Origin: a virus
Taxonomy: Duplodnaviria > Heunggongvirae > Uroviricota > Caudoviricetes
DNA length: 15,617 nt
Strand: one strand, 5' to 3'
IMG/VR virus record: IMGVR_UViG_2698536519_000007
Span: 1 to 15,617 of that record
The notes beneath the pieces are model-generated. The model saw only the letters and a list, made by a program, of their open reading frames with translations. It was not told the DNA's origin and did not search any database. Below, in pieces: positions 551-8,627 of the stretch. A program made the translations under genes and the position numbers. How positions within the stretch are numbered: the stretch's first letter is position 1; each line of letters begins with the position of its first letter.

Positions 551-877
551 TGAAGTGGTCTACTGAATTTGGCCATCTGAACAGGGTGATATGCTCACCT
601 TAGAACAACACAGGTGCACCAATGAAAAGAAGAAATTTCAGTCCTGAATTCAAACGTGAATCCGCTCAGTTGGTTGTCGATCAAAATTACACTGTTTCTG
701 ACGCTGCTAAGGCTATGGATGTTGGTCTTTCCACGATGACGGAATGGTTCAAACAACTGCGTGATGAGCGTCAGGGCAAACGCCAAAAGCCTTCCTGATA
801 ACACCGGAACAAATCGAACTACGTGAGCTAAAGAAAAAGCTACAACGAATTGAAATGGAAACGAAATATTAAAAAAC
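551..877 (+). mobile_element. IS3-family (IS911-like) element, left segment with terminal inverted repeat
   Basis: Sequence from 551 (TGAAGTGGTCTACTGAATTTGGCCATCTGAACAGGGTGATATG) matches the IS911-type left IR as I recall it, followed by an orfA-like reading frame. The segment ends in ATATTAAAAAA at 867-877, where unrelated sequence begins. Confidence 0.7.
622..798 (+). pseudogene. IS3-family orfA (HTH transposase subunit), frameshifted
   Basis: ATG at 622 gives [53 protein letters not shown]..., an IS911 OrfA-like N-terminus, stopping at 796-798. The expected continuation ([21 protein letters not shown]) lies in another frame at 799-868, so there is at least one indel. Confidence 0.7.
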
Positions 878-2455
878 TTTCCATGTGTGAAACCCCGTCC
901 CGAGTCTCAGAAACTCCCCGGTAAAGCTGGCAGTCTAATATAGCGAAGGAAGCAGTCGTCGGCCTTTTGGTGGTATGACCCTTAAAAAACATGGTTCAGG
1001 GGCTGTGGCGGATCCGACGGTGGTAGCTTGATCCCGTTCAGGAAGGTGATTTCTCCGTCGTCTCCTCCTTCGTTCATTAAAAATGAGCAAGGAGATTTAT
1101 ATGAAAAAATCCTCCCGAATGTCTATTGTCCATTCTCATGCTGCGGGCGTTGATATTGGGGCCAAATTTCACGTTGTGGCCGTACCGCCTGATGCTGACG
1201 CCGAGCCAATAAGGACTTTTCAAAGTTTCACCGGCGACCTTCATCGTATGTCTGACTGGCTCAAAACCTGTCATATTACAACCGTCGCCATGGAGTCCAC
1301 CGGCGTTTACTGGTTGCCTGCTTTTGAGATCCTTGAAGCAGCGGGTTTTAATATGATACTCGTTAATGTCAGTGCCGCAAAAAATGTTCCCGGTCGCAAG
1401 ACTGATGTCAACGACGCACAGTGGTTGCAGAGACGACATGCATTTGGTCTTCTCCGGGCCAGTTTCAGACCTGTACACGACATTTCAGTCCTCAGGTCTT
1501 ATCTGAGGCAACGAGAACGCTTGACTGAATACCGGGCTGCGCATATTCAGCATATGCAGAAAGCGCTGATGCAGATGAATGTGCAATTGCATCATGCCGT
1601 ATCGGATATCACTGGCGTCACCGGTCTCTCGATCGTCAGAGCTATTGTCAGCGGTGAGCCCGATCCTTCAGTATTGATCCAGTACCGTGATGTGAGATGT
1701 AAGAAGACGCCAGAAGTACTTCAGCAGGCACTGACAGGGAACTGGCAACCTGAGCATCTTTTTGCACTTGAGCAGTCGGTGGCATTTTTCTATTTTTACC
1801 AGGAAAAGATCCGTGAACGTGACGATCAAATCGAAATTCATTAATACAACTCAGCACCGGGACTGAAAATCCTGAAGGAGTATTACCCTGCGCCAGACAT
1901 CGTACAAAGCAACCCAATCAGCTTTCCTTGATGTCAGACCGTTACTCTGGAAAATTACCACGGCAGATCTGACACAAATACATGGGGTTGGGCCTTATCT
2001 GGCACTAAAATTCGTTGCCGAACGCGGTACTGACATGAATCGCTGGCCTGATGCGAGCCATTTTACCTCGTGGCTATTTTGTCCACGGGAAATAAGATCT
2101 CCGGTGGAAAAGTGTTGTCCTCGAAAACGAGACGTTCATCCAGTTGAATTGCTGCTGCACTCAGGCTGGCAGCCACAACGATTGGTCGGAGCGATACTGC
2201 GTTGGGTGCTTTTTATCGTCGATTATCATCCCGTATAGGTAAAGCAAAAGCAGTCACTGCAACGGCAAGAAAACTGGCAACACTGTTCTACAATGCCTTG
2301 AAATATGGTAAAAAATATGTCGACAATTGTGCTGATTACTATGAAGAGCGTTACCGTAGTTGCGTACTCAATGGACTTAAACGAAGAGTAAAATCACTGG
2401 GTTATTCTCTCCAGCAAGACCCTGAATTATGAGAGTGAACCAGGAGTTTCTCAGG
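878..2455 (+). mobile_element. IS110-family insertion sequence (DEDD recombinase type) inserted into the IS911-like element; boundaries approximate
   Basis: IS911-like sequence stops at 877 and resumes at about 2456 (AAGGCTACCGCGCTCTTGATGTCAGA, encoding KATALLMSD, the OrfA C-terminus). The intervening about 1.58 kb has a roughly 220 bp non-coding left end, a recombinase with IS110-family signatures and a very short right end, which is the typical IS110-group layout. No terminal inverted repeats, as expected for this family. Confidence 0.6.
1101..2432 (+). pseudogene. IS110-family DEDD recombinase/transposase, disrupted by stops and frameshifts
   Basis: N-terminal frame 1083/1101-1844 carries the RuvC-like DEDD signatures (GVDIGAKFHVVAV, VAMESTGVYW, KTDVNDAQ). 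The C-terminal HhH/Transposase_20-like motifs are split across frames: GVGPYLALKFVAERGTDMNRWPDASHFTSWL (about 1990-2090), GNKISGGKVLSSKTRR (about 2085-2140) and GAFYRRLSSRIGKAKAVTATARKLATLFYNALKYG (2202-2432). There is an in-frame stop at 1842-1844 and another near 2146. Likely start is ATG 1101, with AAGGAG 6 nt upstream. Confidence 0.7.
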
Positions 2456-3289
<834 letters not shown>

Positions 3290-3319
3290 GTAAGCGACTC
3301 GTCAGAACCGTATTGATAT

Positions 3320-4891
3320 TTACTGAGAGCTCAGATCAACTTTCCAGGGCAACAGATCGCGTACCCGGTTTGCCGGCCAGTCCTGGATATGTTCAATGAC
3401 GTAACGCAGCCACTTTTCTGGCTCCACATTGTTCAGACGGCATGTGCCGATCAGCGAGTACAACACCGCCGCATGTTCACCACCGCTGTTGGAACCCGCG
3501 AACATCCAGTTTTTCCGGCCTACGGCCACTCCCCGTAAGGCGTTCTCTGCGATGTTGTTGTCGATTTCCACCCAGCCATTACTGCAGTACACGTTCAGTG
3601 CATCCCACTGTTTCAGCAGGTATGCGAACGCTTTTGCCGTATCTGAGTGACGCGACAGTGTTTTCATCTGTTGCTGTATCCAGTCATACAGTGACTGCAT
3701 CAGTGGCGCGGCTCTGGCTTTTCTTGCCGCCAGACGCTGTTCTGCTGAACAGCCCCGGACCTCTGCCTCGATGGCATACAGTTCACCGATACGCTGCAGG
3801 GCTTCCGTGGTGATGTAGGTGGGCGCTCTTGCATGCACATCGTGGATTTTTCTCCGGGCATGAGCCATACACGCGGCTTCCGTTATTCTGCCGGATTCGT
3901 ATAACGCCCGGTAACCACCGTAAGCATCGGCCTGAAGCACACCGCTGTAACCGGCCAGGTGATTTTGTGGATGGATACCTTTCCGGTCCGGACTGTACGC
4001 GAACCAGACCGCCGGGGGCATCTGTGAACCGGCGTTACGGTCATCACGGACGTAGACCCACAGCCGGGCTGTCCGGGTTTTACCGCTGCCCGGCTCCTGG
4101 ACCGGGACGGGGATATCATCAGCATGGACTTTACCGGGCATCAGCACATACTGGCGCAGGACGTCATACAGCGGCTCCAGCAGTTCAGCAACAGCACCTG
4201 TCCAGCGCCCCAGTGTGGCACGGCTCAGCTCCACTCCCTGACGACGGTATATTTCTGACTGGCGGTATAACGGCAGATGGTCTGCATATTTCCCGGTGAC
4301 AACATGGGCCAGAAGCCCCGCTCCGGCATAACTGCGTGCAATGGGTTTTGAAGGTACTGGTGCCTGCACGATATGGTCGCACCGGCAACAGGCCTGTTTC
4401 GGACGTTGTGTTTCGATAACCTTAAAGGCGCTGCTGATAAGCTCCAGTTGCTCTGACACATCACATCCCAGAGAACTGAGTTCACCACCACAGGCAGGAC
4501 AGCATTCCTCTTCCGGCCGGATAACCCGGGTTTCACGGGGAAGTGAGGCCGGTAACGGTTTACGGGCTGAAGACTGGCGCAGGGCGGATGGCAGTACCGG
4601 GTCATATTGCTCACCCAGCGTTTCCGCCATTTCTTCCTGAAGTGCGCTGATTCGCTCCTGTGCTTCCTGTATCTGCCGTTCGGTTTTTGCACGAAGTTTT
4701 TCTGAGCTTTTACCGAACTGCATACGTTGCAGTTTCGCAACCAGCGCCTTCAGCCGGTTGATTTCGGAAGCATAAGCCGCCACCCGCTGTGAGAGCAGGC
4801 GGTTGTATTCAGCCATCTGGCGGATGGTGTCCTGTTGCGTCTGCAACAGTGCCCGCAGGCGGGCGTTCTCATGAGCAAGTGAGGTGTCCAT
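3320..4891 (-). CDS. tnpC: IS66-family transposase TnpC
   Basis: 523 aa ORF with N-terminal coiled-coil/leucine-zipper-like region, a Cys-rich zinc-finger-like segment (CCPACGGEL...CCRCDH) and a DDE-type core, as I recall for IS66 TnpC. ATG start with GAGG-containing RBS upstream. Confidence 0.9.
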
Positions 4892-4910
4892 ATCCTCACT
4901 TTACAACGGG

Positions 4911-5258
4911 TTATATGCGGATTCCAGCGCGTTCCGTTCGTTTCGGGTGCTTCCAGTTGATACCTTCAAGAAGCATGGATAACTGAGCCGGAGTAAGGTG
5001 CACCTTGCCGTCACGGGTGACTGGCCAGACGAAGCGGCCCCGCTCCAGGCGTTTGGTGAAGAGGCACAGTCCGTCACTGTCAGCCCACAACACTTTTATC
5101 TGGTCACCCCGGCGTCCGCGGAAGATGAACAGGTGTCCGGAGAACGGGTCATCCTTCAGGACGTTCTGAACTTTTGATGCCAGGCCGTTAAAGCCATTTC
5201 GCATATCGGTGATACCTGCAACCAGCCAGATACGCGAACCTGCAGGGAGAGATATCAT
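4911..5258 (-). CDS. tnpB: IS66-family TnpB (Orf2)
   Basis: 115 aa ORF (MISLPAGSRIWLVAGITDMRNGFNGLA...) placed between tnpA and tnpC. Its ATG overlaps the tnpA stop (TGATG), the usual IS66 arrangement. Confidence 0.85.
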   Translation of the reverse strand: MISLPAGSRIWLVAGITDMRNGFNGLASKVQNVLKDDPFSGHLFIFRGRRGDQIKVLWADSDGLCLFTKRLERGRFVWPVTRDGKVHLTPAQLSMLLEGINWKHPKRTERAGIRI

Positions 5259-5935
5259 CAGTGGCTGCTCCCTTTTATTTCGCGGATAAGTGTCTGTAAT
5301 AACGCCGGCGTCAGTTTACCTTTAAGCCTGAGAGTTCCGGCCGGCAGAACCAGCTCACAACACAGACTGTCGGACGGTGTATTTATCTGCTCTGGTTCCT
5401 GTGCGGGGGCCGGGATTTTATTATCCGGCTCCGGCGTTAACGTCACGGGAAGCAGTGCCGGCATATTTTTTCCGGAAGGCAGCAGGCCACCTTTCCGGTA
5501 TTGATGGCGCCAGTTGAAGAGCAGGTTATCGTTGATTCCGTTTTCCCGGGCGATCTGCGCCACACAGGCTCCGGGCTGCAGTGACTGCTCCACTAAGGCG
5601 ATTTTAAACTCATAAGGGAAGTTGGGCCGCCGGGGACGTTTTTTTACCACGGGGGCTTCGGATATAACGGTGCTTTCAGGACGTACGACTGGTACCGTGG
5701 AAAATTGTCCGTAAAGGCAGGCATCAAGTTCCTGCTCCGACATGCCTGCGGGCAAAGGCCACGAAAGGCCAGCTCTCCGAAAGCGCACGAACATACTACA
5801 AACTGTTGATTTTGGTACACCCAGGCGACGCCCGGCCACAACCCGGGGTAAATGTTCTTCAAAGTGAAGACGTAAAGCTTCAGTGATCCAGGTCCGGTGT
5901 TTCATACGATAGTGTCCATTAAAAATGATGGACAT
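5258..5935 (-). CDS. tnpA: IS66-family TnpA (Orf1) with an N-terminal extension of about 95 aa; true start uncertain (ATG 5935, or internal GTG near 5649)
   Basis: The C-terminal about 127 aa (RPRRPNFPYEFKIALVEQSLQPGACVAQIARENGINDNLLFNWRHQYRK...LLPVTLTPEP...) has the IS66 TnpA layout. The frame stays open upstream to ATG 5935 and encodes an extra HTH-like segment. No ATG sits at the canonical start position. Confidence 0.6.
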   Translation of the reverse strand: MSIIFNGHYRMKHRTWITEALRLHFEEHLPRVVAGRRLGVPKSTVCSMFVRFRRAGLSWPLPAGMSEQELDACLYGQFSTVPVVRPESTVISEAPVVKKRPRRPNFPYEFKIALVEQSLQPGACVAQIARENGINDNLLFNWRHQYRKGGLLPSGKNMPALLPVTLTPEPDNKIPAPAQEPEQINTPSDSLCCELVLPAGTLRLKGKLTPALLQTLIREIKGSSH

Positions 5936-6015: not shown

Positions 6016-6336
6016 ATGATAAGTGTTCTGAAGCCGGTGTTAACCCGTAATGCTGCCGGAGAAATGACGGAAGAATGGGTGTCATGCGGGAAAATTCATG
6101 CGGATATCCGTGGCAGGAGCAGCCGGGAGCGGATGCAGTCCGGTGCGGAAATGGCGCAGGCGGAAATCCGCATCTGGGTGCGCGGTCAGTCCGGCCGGGA
6201 AATCACGGCAGCGTCACGACTTCATGTGCTGAGTGGTCCATGGCGTGACCGGATCCTGAACGTTGTCGGGCTGCCCGTGCCGGATGCGACCGGCGGGCGT
6301 CTGGAAATTCTCTGTCGGCTGGGAGGGGAAAAATGA
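6016..6336 (+). CDS. Phage head-tail adaptor / head-tail joining protein (HK97-type family), probably 5'-truncated
   Basis: 106 aa from the first ATG. The in-frame upstream sequence (AISAGRLTQ, 5989-6015) continues the conserved N-terminal motif of this family but has no start codon before it reaches the IS66 terminus at 5988. Stop overlaps the next start (ATGA). Confidence 0.7.
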   Translation: MISVLKPVLTRNAAGEMTEEWVSCGKIHADIRGRSSRERMQSGAEMAQAEIRIWVRGQSGREITAASRLHVLSGPWRDRILNVVGLPVPDATGGRLEILCRLGGEK

Positions 6337-6779
6337 TCGAAACCCTGCTGGATTTTTCGGGGCTGGAGGACATCAGCCGCGATTTGCAGCTTCTGAGTGG
6401 TGCGGAAAATAACCGGGTGCTGCGTGAGGCAACCCGTGCGGGTGCGAATGTGCTGAAAGAAGAAGTGGTGTCACGGGCACCGGTACGCAGGGGAAAACTG
6501 CGCCGCAATGTGGTGGTCCTTTCCCGGCGCTCCCGCGATGGCGGGATGGAATCCGGTGTGCATATCCGGGGTGTTAATCCGGACACCGGTAACAGCGATA
6601 ACACCATGAAGGCGGATAACCCGCGCAATGCTTTCTACTGGCGGTTTGTGGAAATGGGGACCGTGAATATGCCACCGCACCCGTTTGTGCGCCCGGCATT
6701 TGATGTGCGCAGTGAACAGGCGGCACAGGTGGCGATTGCGCGGATGAACCGGGCCATTGATGAGGTACTGAGACGATGA
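6333..6779 (+). CDS. Phage tail-proximal structural protein, HK97 gp10-like family
   Basis: 148 aa ORF, translationally coupled on both sides by ATGA overlaps, located between the head-tail adaptor and tail completion genes. Family assignment is from position and recalled similarity. Confidence 0.65.
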   Translation: MIETLLDFSGLEDISRDLQLLSGAENNRVLREATRAGANVLKEEVVSRAPVRRGKLRRNVVVLSRRSRDGGMESGVHIRGVNPDTGNSDNTMKADNPRNAFYWRFVEMGTVNMPPHPFVRPAFDVRSEQAAQVAIARMNRAIDEVLRR

Positions 6780-7120
6780 CGGAGGCGGATTTGTATCCTC
6801 ATCTGGCGCATCTTGCCGGCGGGCAGGTGTACCCGTATGTGGTCCCCCTGCTGGATGGCAGGCCGTCGGTGGCGCTTCCGTGGGTGGTTTTCAGCCTGAT
6901 TTCATCGGTGTCTGCGGACGTGATGGGCGGGCAGGCGGAGTCCTCAGTGTCGGTGCAGATCGACGTTTATGCCGGGACTGTGACGCAGGCGCGTCAGATA
7001 CGTCAGGACGCCCGTGAAGCCATAATGCTGCTGGCCCCGGGATCCGTCAGTGAAATGCAGGACTATATTCCGGAAAACCGCTGTTACCGTGCAACCCTGG
7101 AGTTTCAGGTCACGGTGTGA
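6776..7120 (+). CDS. Phage tail completion / tail terminator-like protein
   Basis: 114 aa ORF immediately upstream of the major tail protein gene, start overlapping the previous stop. Function inferred from conserved gene order in siphovirus tail modules. Confidence 0.6.
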   Translation: MTEADLYPHLAHLAGGQVYPYVVPLLDGRPSVALPWVVFSLISSVSADVMGGQAESSVSVQIDVYAGTVTQARQIRQDAREAIMLLAPGSVSEMQDYIPENRCYRATLEFQVTV

Positions 7121-7149
7121 CTTTTTCTTTTTTTCTACAAAACCCATAC

Positions 7150-7172
7150 CCCGCCGCGTGCGGGTTTTTTAT
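7150..7172 (+). terminator. Intrinsic terminator-like hairpin plus T-tract just upstream of the major tail protein gene
   Basis: CCCGC (7150-7154), 5-nt loop, GCGGG (7160-7164), followed by TTTTTTATT (7165-7173). The RBS AGGAGG and ATG 7187 follow immediately. Confidence 0.4.
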
Positions 7173-7186
7173 TATCAGGAGGCAGA

Positions 7187-7903
7187 ATGTCTGCTTTGTA
7201 TGAACGCTCACAGCTGACGCAGGTGATGATTTCATCTGCCCCGGCGACTGCTGAAACTATGGATAAGGCGGAATATCTGCGCCTGGACTGCACCATCAAG
7301 GAAGTCCAGTTCACCGCCGGTCAGAAACAGGATATTGATGTGACCACGCTCTGCTCCACAGAGCAGGAGAACATCAACGGTCTGGGGGCGTCGTCTGAGA
7401 TTTCCATGTCGGGTAATTTTTATCTGAATCAGGCCCAGAACGCCCTGCGTGATGCCTATGACAATGACGCGTTGTATGCGTTTAAGGTGCTGTTTCCGTC
7501 CGGTAAGGGCTTTAAGTTCCTGGCGGAAGTGCGTCAGCACACCTGGTCATCCGGTACCAACGGCGTGGTGGCAGCAACGTTTTCACTGCGTATGAAAGGC
7601 AAACCGGTGTCCTTTGTGGTACCGCTGGCGTTTGTGAAAAATCTGGATAAAACACTTACCGTGAATACAGGTGCGCTGCTGACAATGTCAGTCAGTGCCA
7701 ACGGGGGAACGCCGCCGTATAAATACGCCTGGAAGAAGGATGGTCAGCCGGTTGACGGGCAGACGACAGACACCTTCAGTAAGCCAGGTGCGCAGTCCGC
7801 TGATGCGGGGAAATATACCTGCGTGGTGACCGATTCGGCAGAGAAAGCACAGAGTGTGACGTCTGTTGAATGCACCGTGACAGTGAGCGCAGCCGCCGGA
7901 TAA
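7187..7903 (+). CDS. Major tail (tube) protein with C-terminal Ig-like domain
   Basis: 238 aa, strong RBS (CAGGAGG) before ATG 7187. The C-terminal about 85 aa (PPYKYAWKKDGQPV...AGKYTCVVTDS...) looks like an immunoglobulin-like fold, as often appended to siphovirus major tail proteins. Position is upstream of the G/GT chaperone. Confidence 0.85.
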   Translation: MSALYERSQLTQVMISSAPATAETMDKAEYLRLDCTIKEVQFTAGQKQDIDVTTLCSTEQENINGLGASSEISMSGNFYLNQAQNALRDAYDNDALYAFKVLFPSGKGFKFLAEVRQHTWSSGTNGVVAATFSLRMKGKPVSFVVPLAFVKNLDKTLTVNTGALLTMSVSANGGTPPYKYAWKKDGQPVDGQTTDTFSKPGAQSADAGKYTCVVTDSAEKAQSVTSVECTVTVSAAAG

Positions 7904-7917
7904 GGGGATGGGTCATC

Positions 7918-8292
7918 ATGAAAAAGGATCTGAAAACGCTGGCGCTGGCCAGACTGTCAGGGTTTCGTCATAAAACGGTGAAGGTGCCGGAATGGGGTAA
8001 TGTCAGCGTGGTGCTGCGGGAGCCTTCGGCAGAGGCCTGGTATCTGTGGCAGGAAGTGCTCAATGGTGATGGAGAGGATGACGATACCCTGTCGGTGGTG
8101 GCGAAAACCCGCCGTAACCTGGAAGCGGATGTGACGCTGTTCTGCGATGTCCTGTGTGATACTGACCTGCAACGGGTGTTCACTCCGGACGACCGTGAGC
8201 AGGTGCTGGCCGTCTATGGTCCGGTACATGCCCGGTTGCTGCGTCAGGCACTGGAACTGATCGCTGATGCAGAGTCGGCCAGAAAAAAGTAG
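7918..8292 (+). CDS. G: Tail assembly chaperone (lambda gpG analogue)
   Basis: ATG 7918 (MKKDLKTL...) with AAGGGGA RBS about 10 nt upstream. The ORF track's 7870 start is an upstream alternative-codon extension. Ends TAG 8290-8292 right after the slippery heptamer. Confidence 0.8.
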   Translation: MKKDLKTLALARLSGFRHKTVKVPEWGNVSVVLREPSAEAWYLWQEVLNGDGEDDDTLSVVAKTRRNLEADVTLFCDVLCDTDLQRVFTPDDREQVLAVYGPVHARLLRQALELIADAESARKK

Positions 8293-8597
8293 CCCGCCCG
8301 GAAATTCGCTTTCTGATGCGACTTGCGCTCCGTCTGGGGCGCACCTTATCCGAACTGCGGCACAGCCTGAGTGCGAGCGAGGCGATGATGTGGATGGAGT
8401 TTGACAGGGTGTCCCCGCTGGGTGATGAGCGCGGGGATATCCGTAATGCACAGATCGTGAAAGCGGTTTTCGGGGCACAGGGGATGAATGTTGCACTGAA
8501 GGACGCCATGCTCTGCTGGGGCGAGGATGAGGATAAGCCGGAGGTGGATCCGTTTGCGGCGCTGGAAGACGCGCTGAGCTTTGCAGCACAGTCATGA
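7918..8597 (+). CDS. Tail assembly chaperone frameshift fusion product (lambda gpGT analogue) via -1 frameshift at 8283-8289
   Basis: The -1 frame is open from 8268 to 8597 and encodes a lambda gpT-like segment (EAMMWMEFDRVSPLGDERGDIRNAQIVKAVF...). It can only be expressed by a shift from the G frame; the canonical A AAA AAG site sits at the G 3' end. Confidence 0.65.
8283..8289 (+). promoter_or_regulatory. Programmed -1 ribosomal frameshift slippery heptamer A AAA AAG
   Basis: Sequence AGA AAA AAG TAG in the G frame. The heptamer A_AAA_AAG matches the classic X XXY YYZ motif and lies in the overlap window between the G and T frames. Confidence 0.6.
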
Positions 8598-8605
8598 ATG
8601 ATGAG

Positions 8606-8627
8606 AACCGCTGAGGCGGTTTTTTTA
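8606..8627 (+). terminator. Rho-independent terminator between GT and tape measure gene
   Basis: AACCGC (8606-8611), loop TGAG, GCGGTT (8616-8621), then a T7 run (8621-8627), in the 47-bp intergenic gap after the GT stop (8595-8597). Confidence 0.55.

Follow-up and report, generated by a model that had tools for sequence, protein, structure and literature searches.

An IS110-family element in the frameshift site of an IS911-like insertion sequence and a putative guide RNA that matches this site

The stretch of DNA considered here (15,617 nt; IMG/VR virus record IMGVR_UViG_2698536519_000007, Caudoviricetes), which is referred to in the following as the window, carries an IS110-family element inserted into an IS911-like element of the IS3 family of insertion sequences (IS). 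All coordinates are positions in the window, and all assignments are based on sequence comparison and computation. The initial annotation had placed the insertion at the programmed frameshift site of the IS911-like element, and the junctions, the rebuilt empty site, and the domains found with Pfam and NCBIfam all agree with this. In IS911 the A AAA AAG heptamer drives OrfAB frameshifting. It is this same signal of the programmed −1 frameshifting in IS911 and other IS3 elements that is interrupted in the window; whereas the signal normally functions in translation, it appears to serve here as the DNA attachment site for another element. The features of the locus are collected in Table 1.

The interrupted host shows what characterizes an IS3-family element: an orfA with an HTH_Tnp_1 domain (Pfam; 622–800), orfB similarity downstream of the insert (tblastn with IS3 orfB, 3.7e-16), and an A AAA AAG site equal to that of IS911. 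The copy in the window is decayed; across the rebuilt junction it shows ~84% nucleotide identity to uninterrupted IS911. The left flank reads ...GAAACGAAATATTAAAAAA (...GAAATATTAAAAAA), with the A-run at positions 871–876 and with 876 as the last base; base 877 is a C and is the first base of the insert. The right flank, AAGGCTACC, begins at 2456. The initial annotation had the right flank start at this same base and let the left flank end at 877, which is one base too far. It also had found the A AAA AAG heptamer in the joined sequence, and the heptamer is indeed contained in it; joined literally, however, the two flanks give eight A, whereas uninterrupted IS911-type copies have only six. For example, the copy from Escherichia coli 536, the coding sequence of which is annotated by PGAP with “programmed frameshift,” reads GAAATATTAAAAAAGGCTACCGCGCTC (in the shorter form ATATTAAAAAAGGCTACC). 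The rebuilt pre-insertion site is ATATTAAAA[AA]GGCTACC, where the brackets enclose the 2-nt AA core that is present at both junctions (875–876 and 2456–2457). The duplication is limited to this core, and the crossover lies within the heptamer.

The insert is assigned to the IS110 family from the domains of its transposase. PF01548, the N-terminal DEDD/RuvC-like domain, was found in the open reading frame 1083–1844 of the window (2.4e-18) and in the intact homologue L002 (1.5e-20). The intact 89%-identical homologue also matches PF02371 (5.1e-13), contains the SG-motif LSPGNKISGG, and reaches 258 bits with NCBIfam NF033542 (“IS110 family RNA-guided transposase”), for which the cut-off is 140; in the window the C-terminal part is broken into fragments, which on their own gave no Pfam match. 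Compared with the intact copy in E. coli NCTC9066, to which it is 89.3% identical, the insert differs by 162 substitutions, by three single-base deletions within the transposase coding sequence, resulting in three frameshifts, and by small deletions in the RNA gene. On sequence grounds the window copy is a dead fossil, i.e., an inactive relic. As is characteristic of the family, the ends lack terminal inverted repeats, and there is no target duplication past the AA core. There are sub-terminal inverted repeats, in which the variable bases beside AGAAAC on the left and GTTTCT on the right covary across the clade formed by the element and its relatives; these repeats may be bound by a protein or may form a hairpin, of RNA or DNA, across the circle junction. 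The non-coding parts are very unequal, with 224 nt upstream (877–1100) and 23 nt downstream (2433–2455) of the transposase gene, and the length of the element varies within the clade only between 1574 and 1622 bp. An ISfinder name could not be attached to it: cluster names read only “IS110 family transposase,” and in the sequence file of Siddiquee et al. (2024; PMC11187229) the only relatives, ISWpi13, ISCARN20, and ISAzo22, are more distant.

A search with the intact transposase as query and with one genome per species yielded 80 loci with 50–98% amino acid identity, from Gamma-, Beta-, and Alphaproteobacteria, Chlorobiaceae, Acidobacteriota, Verrucomicrobiota, Actinomycetota, cyanobacteria, and others. 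The analysis was carried out with 55 loci at which the ends could be placed, namely the window copy and 54 relatives, which are L002 and the group with 62–98% amino acid identity (L005–L057 and L061, without L042). At 32 of the 55 loci the element lies between orfA and orfB of an IS3 element, with orfA ending at the left junction and/or orfB starting at the right one, and both on the same strand as the IS110 gene. The orfA flanks carry HTH_Tnp_1 and the orfB flanks HTH_21 and rve, the right-flank reading frames matching NF033516 from about position 84 to 369. Where both flanks are available (23 loci), orfB similarity begins at most 34 nt from the junction and in the −1 frame relative to orfA in 16 cases. 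Two further loci with few flanking bases, L010 and L011, read ...EILKK/A and ...DILKK/AAAYFAKE, the slash marking the junction. The A-run in the form A6(A/G) was found in 41 of the 54 rebuilt sites and the AA core in 52.

The pattern is not restricted to IS3 elements. Four confirmed and two probable insertions are in genes of the IS630 family, between positions ~132 and 134 of NF033545, where the sites read ...F K K/ and where in three of the four cases the frame changes by −1 at the junction. In one genome three copies, which are 99.9–100% identical to each other, are found in three different IS630-family genes, which indicates that transposition has been recent, repeated, and site-specific. 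The specific targeting of a conserved IS911 motif, proposed in the initial annotation in place of chance, is thus supported by the other copies: rather than at unrelated sequences without a common core, they are generally found at the same site and with the same AA core.

The copies in E. coli and on plasmids point in the same direction. Portions of the element are present in 546 of 5426 complete E. coli genomes, full-length elements in 74, and there is always only one copy per genome. All contexts in this species, i.e., the window type, the intact NCTC9066 type (NZ_LR134000, 4031122–4032707) beside a tRNA-Leu gene and an integrase gene, the PapRG type (a 92.8% variant at another locus), a 5′ fragment, and a 3′ fragment, have the same two junctions, and these lie inside IS3-family remnants. 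A 99.6%-identical copy on 88 IncFIB plasmids from Citrobacter, Enterobacter, Klebsiella, and Serratia (NZ_CP022697, 140286–141871), all with one context, follows the sequence ...RVTDERDILKK of the orfA of a different IS3-group element, and its flanks have no nucleotide similarity to the E. coli flanks. Near-identical copies (99.6–100%) in flanks without nucleotide similarity are L002 versus L087 and the three copies L018, L021, and L022. In the copy from Salmonella arizonae (L005; 98%) the right flank is different again.

Across the clade, the 224-nt region that precedes the transposase gene can be aligned well. With 53 distinct homologous upstream regions as input, RNAalifold predicts 32 base pairs, 20 of which show compensatory changes. 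Paired cells amount to 94.6%, as compared with 84.0% in shuffled and 41–51% in slid alignments, and the covariation score is 0.362 versus 0.174 for the control. The comparison shows that a conserved RNA is encoded in this region; in its predicted structure the RNA has two loops. It should be noted that minimum free energy folds of single sequences of the non-coding region are no better than those of shuffled ones (z = 0.19 and −0.56) and are thus uninformative, so that the structure is visible in the alignment only. In Rfam the window had no match at gathering thresholds, and two intact homologues had none at E ≤ 1. Within positions 1064–1100, the 3′ strand of stem P1 (CCUCC/CCCUCC) could alternatively pair with the Shine-Dalgarno sequence GGAGG of the transposase gene, located ~25 nt downstream, and RNA folding and translation initiation may therefore exclude each other.

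The loops of the RNA contain segments that match both halves of the insertion site and one end of the element. On the 3′ side of the target loop is the left-target guide UUAAAAAA, which is conserved across the clade and identical to the 8 nt preceding the insert. On the 5′ side is GGCCUUUU, which is complementary to AAAAGGCT in the top strand of the rebuilt site with seven Watson-Crick pairs and one G-U pair; this segment is antisense to the A-run, the core, and ~5 nt of the right target. In the clade the right-target side consists of five variable bases followed by UU(A/U)UUGG, and the variable bases go with the flank: when the flanks of 49 loci were permuted 5000 times in a fixed register, the right-target guides formed 158.6 ± 5.7 pairs (maximum 178), as compared with 186 pairs with their own flanks, a value reached by none of the 5000 permutations. 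The guide is tuned by IS3 subgroup, ...UCGAU being found with GTCGA flanks and ...UGGCU with GGCCA flanks. The left-target guide is altered in L009, L038, L057, L063, and L068/69, and there the left flanks are altered to match. Thus, the guides AUAUAUAA (L009), UUUCUGAA, UAACUAAG, UCUAGAAG, and UUUGUUAG are accompanied by the left flanks TTATATAA, CTTCTGAA, CAACTAAG, CCTAGAAG, and CTTGTTAG, respectively. At these re-programmed loci there is an exact match, ending at the junction, between the flank and the last seven of the eight guide bases; such a match is never reached with the guides of other loci.

In the second loop the left-donor guide has the clade consensus U(C/U)AGGAA, in which the choice of C or U follows the right end (98% identical). 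All three guide matches are present in the window, and in 200,000 composition-preserving shuffles of its left end they occurred jointly with a frequency of 5e-6. The order of the two target guides, with the antisense, top-strand-pairing segment on the 5′ side (959–968) and the sense segment on the 3′ side (982–989), is the same in all 53 aligned RNAs. The sequence GGTAGC (1022–1027), which resembles the reverse complement of GGCTACC, was considered as right-target guide and rejected, because it corresponds, in mutated form, to the UGGUGAC that is invariant in the family and belongs to the stem of P4.

From the family-wide pattern together with the guide matches we infer that the position of the insert is programmed and not a matter of chance. 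With a probability of roughly 0.88, the insert belongs, as a copy that is now dead, to a widespread clade of RNA-guided IS110-family elements that is programmed for the A-run recoding site of IS3 elements (TTA AAA AAG GCN) and for the equivalent A-run of IS630-family elements. The mechanism via a bridge or seek RNA, the extension to the IS630 family, and the finding that the window copy is dead go beyond what the initial annotation had proposed.

Table 1. Features at the insertion locus (positions in the window; P1–P4, stems of the predicted RNA).
Feature	Position	Strand	Remarks
IS911-like IS3-family host, left part	551–876	+	left inverted repeat near 551 (TGAAGTGGTC...); orfA remnant from 622; internal stop near 798; ends ...ATATTAAAAAA
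Left target plus core	869–876	+	TTAAAA + AA; first six bases of A AAA AAG and the preceding TT; core AA 875–876
IS110-family element	877–2455	+	left end, RNA gene, transposase pseudogene, right end; 1.58 kb; 877–2457 with one core copy
Left sub-terminal inverted repeat CTCAGAAACTCC	906–917	+	partner 2443–2454; ~30 nt inside left end
Bridge/seek-RNA-like structured non-coding RNA (putative)	943–1073	+	RNAalifold and covariation
P1	943–950/1066–1073		closes entire RNA
P2	954–958/992–996		closes target-binding (first) loop
Right-target guide and U-tract	959–968	+	5′ side of target loop; GGCCUUUU at 961–968
Left-target guide UUAAAAAA	982–989	+	3′ side of target loop; sense copy of 869–876; would pair with bottom strand
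P3	999–1003/1060–1064		closes donor-binding (second) loop, which holds P4
P4 hairpin	1021–1036		damaged in window copy
Left-donor guide UCAGGAA	1038–1044	+	3′ side of second loop; sense copy of right end plus core (2451–2457)
IS110-family transposase pseudogene	1101–2432	+	intact homologue 446 aa; single-base deletions near 1836, 1927, and 2077; Shine-Dalgarno sequence 1089–1094
Right sub-terminal inverted repeat GGAGTTTCTCAG	2443–2454	+	11/12 match to reverse complement of 906–917; 1 nt inside right end
Second AA core copy	2456–2457	+	right junction; AA here in 52/54 relatives
IS911-like host, right part	2458–3289	+	starts GGCTACCGCGCTC...; decayed orfB remnants; IS66-family end (GTAAGCG...) cuts host at ~3290

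Several observations weigh against this interpretation. About 15 of the 55 loci are at A-rich sites outside recognizable IS elements or could not be classified; among the sites that belong neither to IS3 nor to IS630 elements are a TraG-like gene, intergenic A-runs, and unclassifiable sites. At many loci the right-target guide pairs imperfectly; on average, 3.8 of 6 positions are paired. A right-donor guide, which should be complementary to the left end, was not found in any consistent register in the RNA by mutual information, by sense and antisense diagonal scans, or by the best match per locus of the nine variable nucleotides on the 5′ side of the donor loop, which gave a weak GAGAG/CTGTC match in one subgroup only. 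A sigma-70-like promoter was found neither in the left end nor across a natural junction of right end (RE) and left end (LE), and there was nothing upstream of the RNA. And finally, the window and NCTC9066 elements, which are 89% identical, have flanks that are 81–85% identical and have thus diverged to a similar extent, so that these two copies could descend from one nested ancestor.

The last point leads to the question whether the shared position reflects nothing but descent, i.e., one chance insertion into an ancestral IS3 element, after which the nested pair spread passively, either mobilized in trans with the IS3 element or on islands and plasmids. That there is only one copy per E. coli genome, that most copies are orthologous, that the window and NCTC9066 copies have diverged about as much as their IS911-like flanks, and that 88 plasmid copies have one context would be in accordance with this explanation. 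For the clade as a whole it is already contradicted, however, since 99.6–100% identical copies are found in hosts without nucleotide similarity outside the target motif, since the hosts span two unrelated IS families and many IS3 subgroups, and since the guide RNA matches the site and changes with the site in the re-programmed relatives. As an explanation of the pattern it is considered to be very unlikely. A pure coincidence in the window, namely a non-specific insertion that happened to hit the 7-bp heptamer of a ~1.25-kb element, has a prior of ~0.6% (7 bp/~1250 bp), and a single copy alone cannot rule against it; all the comparative evidence does, and with the other copies refuting it the probability left for it is next to nil.

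It is also conceivable, albeit improbable, that the site preference is set by the protein or by the structure of the DNA, e.g., by bending or melting of the A-tract, the matches of the RNA then being incidental or remnants of target capture. The guides AUAUAUAA–UUUGUUAG are tracked by the sites TTATATAA–CTTGTTAG, which are not A-tracts, and the right-target guide covaries with the right flank. Also, the guides are located in the loops of a structure supported by covariation, and experiments with IS621 and ISEc21 have demonstrated that these elements depend on RNA (Durrant et al., 2024, PMC11208160; Siddiquee et al., 2024, PMC11187229). These findings have to be held against the constancy of the AA core, the A-richness also of several of the non-IS sites, the failure to find a right-donor guide in the RNA, and the sub-terminal inverted repeats, which offer a possible sequence for protein binding.

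If the clade is RNA-guided, as we consider most probable, its transposition can be pictured by analogy with IS621 and ISEc21. The element would excise as a circle joined RE-AA-LE, for which the junction ...GGGAGTTTCTCAGG-AA-CTGTCCATGGGTG... is predicted. The RNA, predicted to be ~130–140 nt long and to span GAAGGAAGC...CUCCUUCG, would form a complex with the transposase, in which one loop pairs with the circle junction and the other one with the target, and recombination would occur at the AA core. For relatives with the guide UUAAAAAA the target would be TTAAAAAA(A/G), with TTAAAAAA/AAGGC as the expected logo. This target is asymmetric, and insertion would therefore always be co-directional with the genes of the host. 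By the separation of orfA from orfB the host would lose the ability to make OrfAB, a near-complete OrfA still being possible. A probable reason for the use of the frameshift window is that it is the one motif that is nucleotide-constrained across very divergent, multicopy, dispensable, and horizontally mobile elements. Both the window copy and its IS911-like host have decayed since the insertion, and in E. coli they are inherited vertically.

IS621, an IS110-family element from E. coli, is a bridge RNA-guided recombinase (Durrant et al., 2024; PMC11208160). The clade resembles it in having a transposase with a DEDD/RuvC-like N-terminal domain and a C-terminal PF02371 domain with SG motif, a non-coding RNA upstream of the transposase gene with two internal loops, of which one matches the target and the other, in the clade, the right end of the element, a 2-nt core that lies within the guides and past which nothing is duplicated, and a target that is a repeated sequence. 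The transposase of IS621 has, however, only 326 aa (981-nt coding sequence, L085) as compared with 446 aa here, its core is CT rather than AA, and its target is a REP sequence rather than an IS recoding site. Also, in IS621 the sense guide for the left flank is located 5′ of the antisense guide, which is the reverse of the order found here; for example, in a real copy with the left flank TATCAGGCCT followed by the LE TGTATT..., the sense guide AUCGGGCCU precedes the antisense UGCGUAG. Further differences are the 12-bp sub-terminal inverted repeats of the clade, the lack of an identified right-donor guide, and the lack of an Rfam family for its RNA. In the IS621 copy of E. coli 90-9280 (L085:1570–1730) part of the left end occurs twice, another LE (TGTATTATCC...) following directly after ...GCCGTATCGGGCCT, which is the left-target guide within the first, truncated LE; it looks as if the insertion of this IS621 had gone into its own bridge-RNA gene, at the sense copy of the target.

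ISEc21 is likewise of the IS110 type and has an upstream non-coding RNA, the seekRNA, that directs it into a conserved stretch of IS3 transposase genes, the DDE codons (Siddiquee et al., 2024; PMC11187229). It is thus a precedent for an IS110 element parasitizing IS3 elements. It differs from the clade, whose targets include IS630-family elements as well as the orfA/orfB frameshift window, in the size of the transposase (358 aa) and in the order of the guides, the match to the bottom strand coming before that to the top strand, which is reversed here. The order found in the clade is that of the seekRNAs of IS1111-type elements (Siddiquee et al., 2024; PMC11187229). The IS1111 group shares with the clade that conserved sequences of other mobile elements are targeted and that there are sub-terminal inverted repeats, which in this group are 7–17 bp long, a range that includes the 12 bp found here. 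In contrast, its RNA is encoded downstream rather than upstream of the transposase gene, its transposases have 330–350 rather than 446 aa, and its targets are palindromic inverted repeats or attC sites rather than a recoding signal in a coding region. With 446 aa the transposase of the clade is of the long type; 395–455 aa are given for the subgroup to which IS110 itself belongs (Siddiquee et al., 2024; PMC11187229). Of the features of the IS110 type, as represented by IS621 and ISEc21, the clade has the long upstream non-coding region and lacks the guide order. It thus appears to combine an upstream, IS110-like RNA gene with an IS1111-like guide order and sub-terminal repeats.

A search of the accessible literature for IS110 elements in IS3 frameshift sites, which did not cover ISfinder, returned only ISEc21 with its DDE codons and the classical IS1111 targets, and no paper in which IS110 elements are described to target the frameshift window or IS630-family elements. 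The target class appears to be undescribed, within the known class of RNA-guided IS110-family elements. We incline, by a small degree only, to the view that the clade is a specialized hyperparasite of insertion sequences, with a bridge RNA fixed on the −1 recoding A-run, which the transposase genes of both the IS3 and the IS630 family would have to retain, that inactivates its hosts at this invariant motif and whose RNA and transposase may be expressed from the promoter of the host IS. Use of the host promoter is possible because no promoter was found in the element and because insertion would always be co-directional; if it is used, the activity of the parasite would be coupled to that of the host.

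A programmed insertion would explain a recurrent annotation, in which an “IS110 family transposase” is found between two pseudogenes annotated as “IS3 family transposase, frameshifted/incomplete,” as one event. A frameshift signal that is nucleotide-constrained for translation would double as an attachment site across phyla and in two unrelated IS families. It would also be a case of parasitism among insertion sequences, in which each insertion abolishes the fused transposase of the host and leaves orfA. For work on bridge recombinases the clade provides natural examples with an AA core, a swapped order of the target guides, and a transposase of ~440 aa, as well as dozens of natural guide/target pairs for comparison.

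Some other copies and relatives deserve mention. In ~390 E. coli genomes, mostly of the ST131 type (L004:3744–4275), only bases 1–275 of the element are kept, with the RNA gene (97.8% identity) located after a remnant of an IS3 orfA; a truncated ulaA-like gene of the phosphotransferase system cuts the element off at this point, leaving an orphan bridge-RNA gene without transposase. In Salmonella enterica subsp. arizonae (L005; element at 2771–4360) the left flank and the IS911 orfA flank of NCTC9066 share 96.7% identity, and the right flank is an unrelated IS3-group orfB (AAAGCCACGGCGTACTTCGC...), a chimeric host that suggests recombination between two nested copies. On the IncFIB plasmids the last base(s) of the IS110 right end are removed by another IS66 element. 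In a metagenome-assembled genome (MAG) of Mycoavidus (L009:4320–4345) a right end, ...GTTTCTTAGG-AA, directly abuts CCTCTTAAGGGG, the left end of another copy; this RE-AA-LE junction would come either from two copies in head-to-tail tandem or from the assembly of a circle, and it is the only hint at excision as a circle. A distant branch (L057, L063, L068, L069, and other relatives with 50–58% identity) has the core AG instead of AA, guides ending in ...UAAG, ...GAAG, and ...UUAG, and sites outside IS elements. Two of these copies, L068 and L069, are from one MAG and have a common left flank and different right flanks.

Downstream of the nested pair the window contains, on the minus strand, a complete IS66-family element (3290–5935) with TnpA (225 aa), TnpB (115 aa), and TnpC (523 aa), the end of which (GTAAGCG...) truncates the IS911-like host. 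It is followed on the plus strand (6016–14251) by prophage morphogenesis genes, which are truncated on their left side by the IS66 element and which include those for a head-closure protein, an HK97 gp10-like protein, a tape-measure protein of 1080 aa, and an NlpC/P60-like tail protein.

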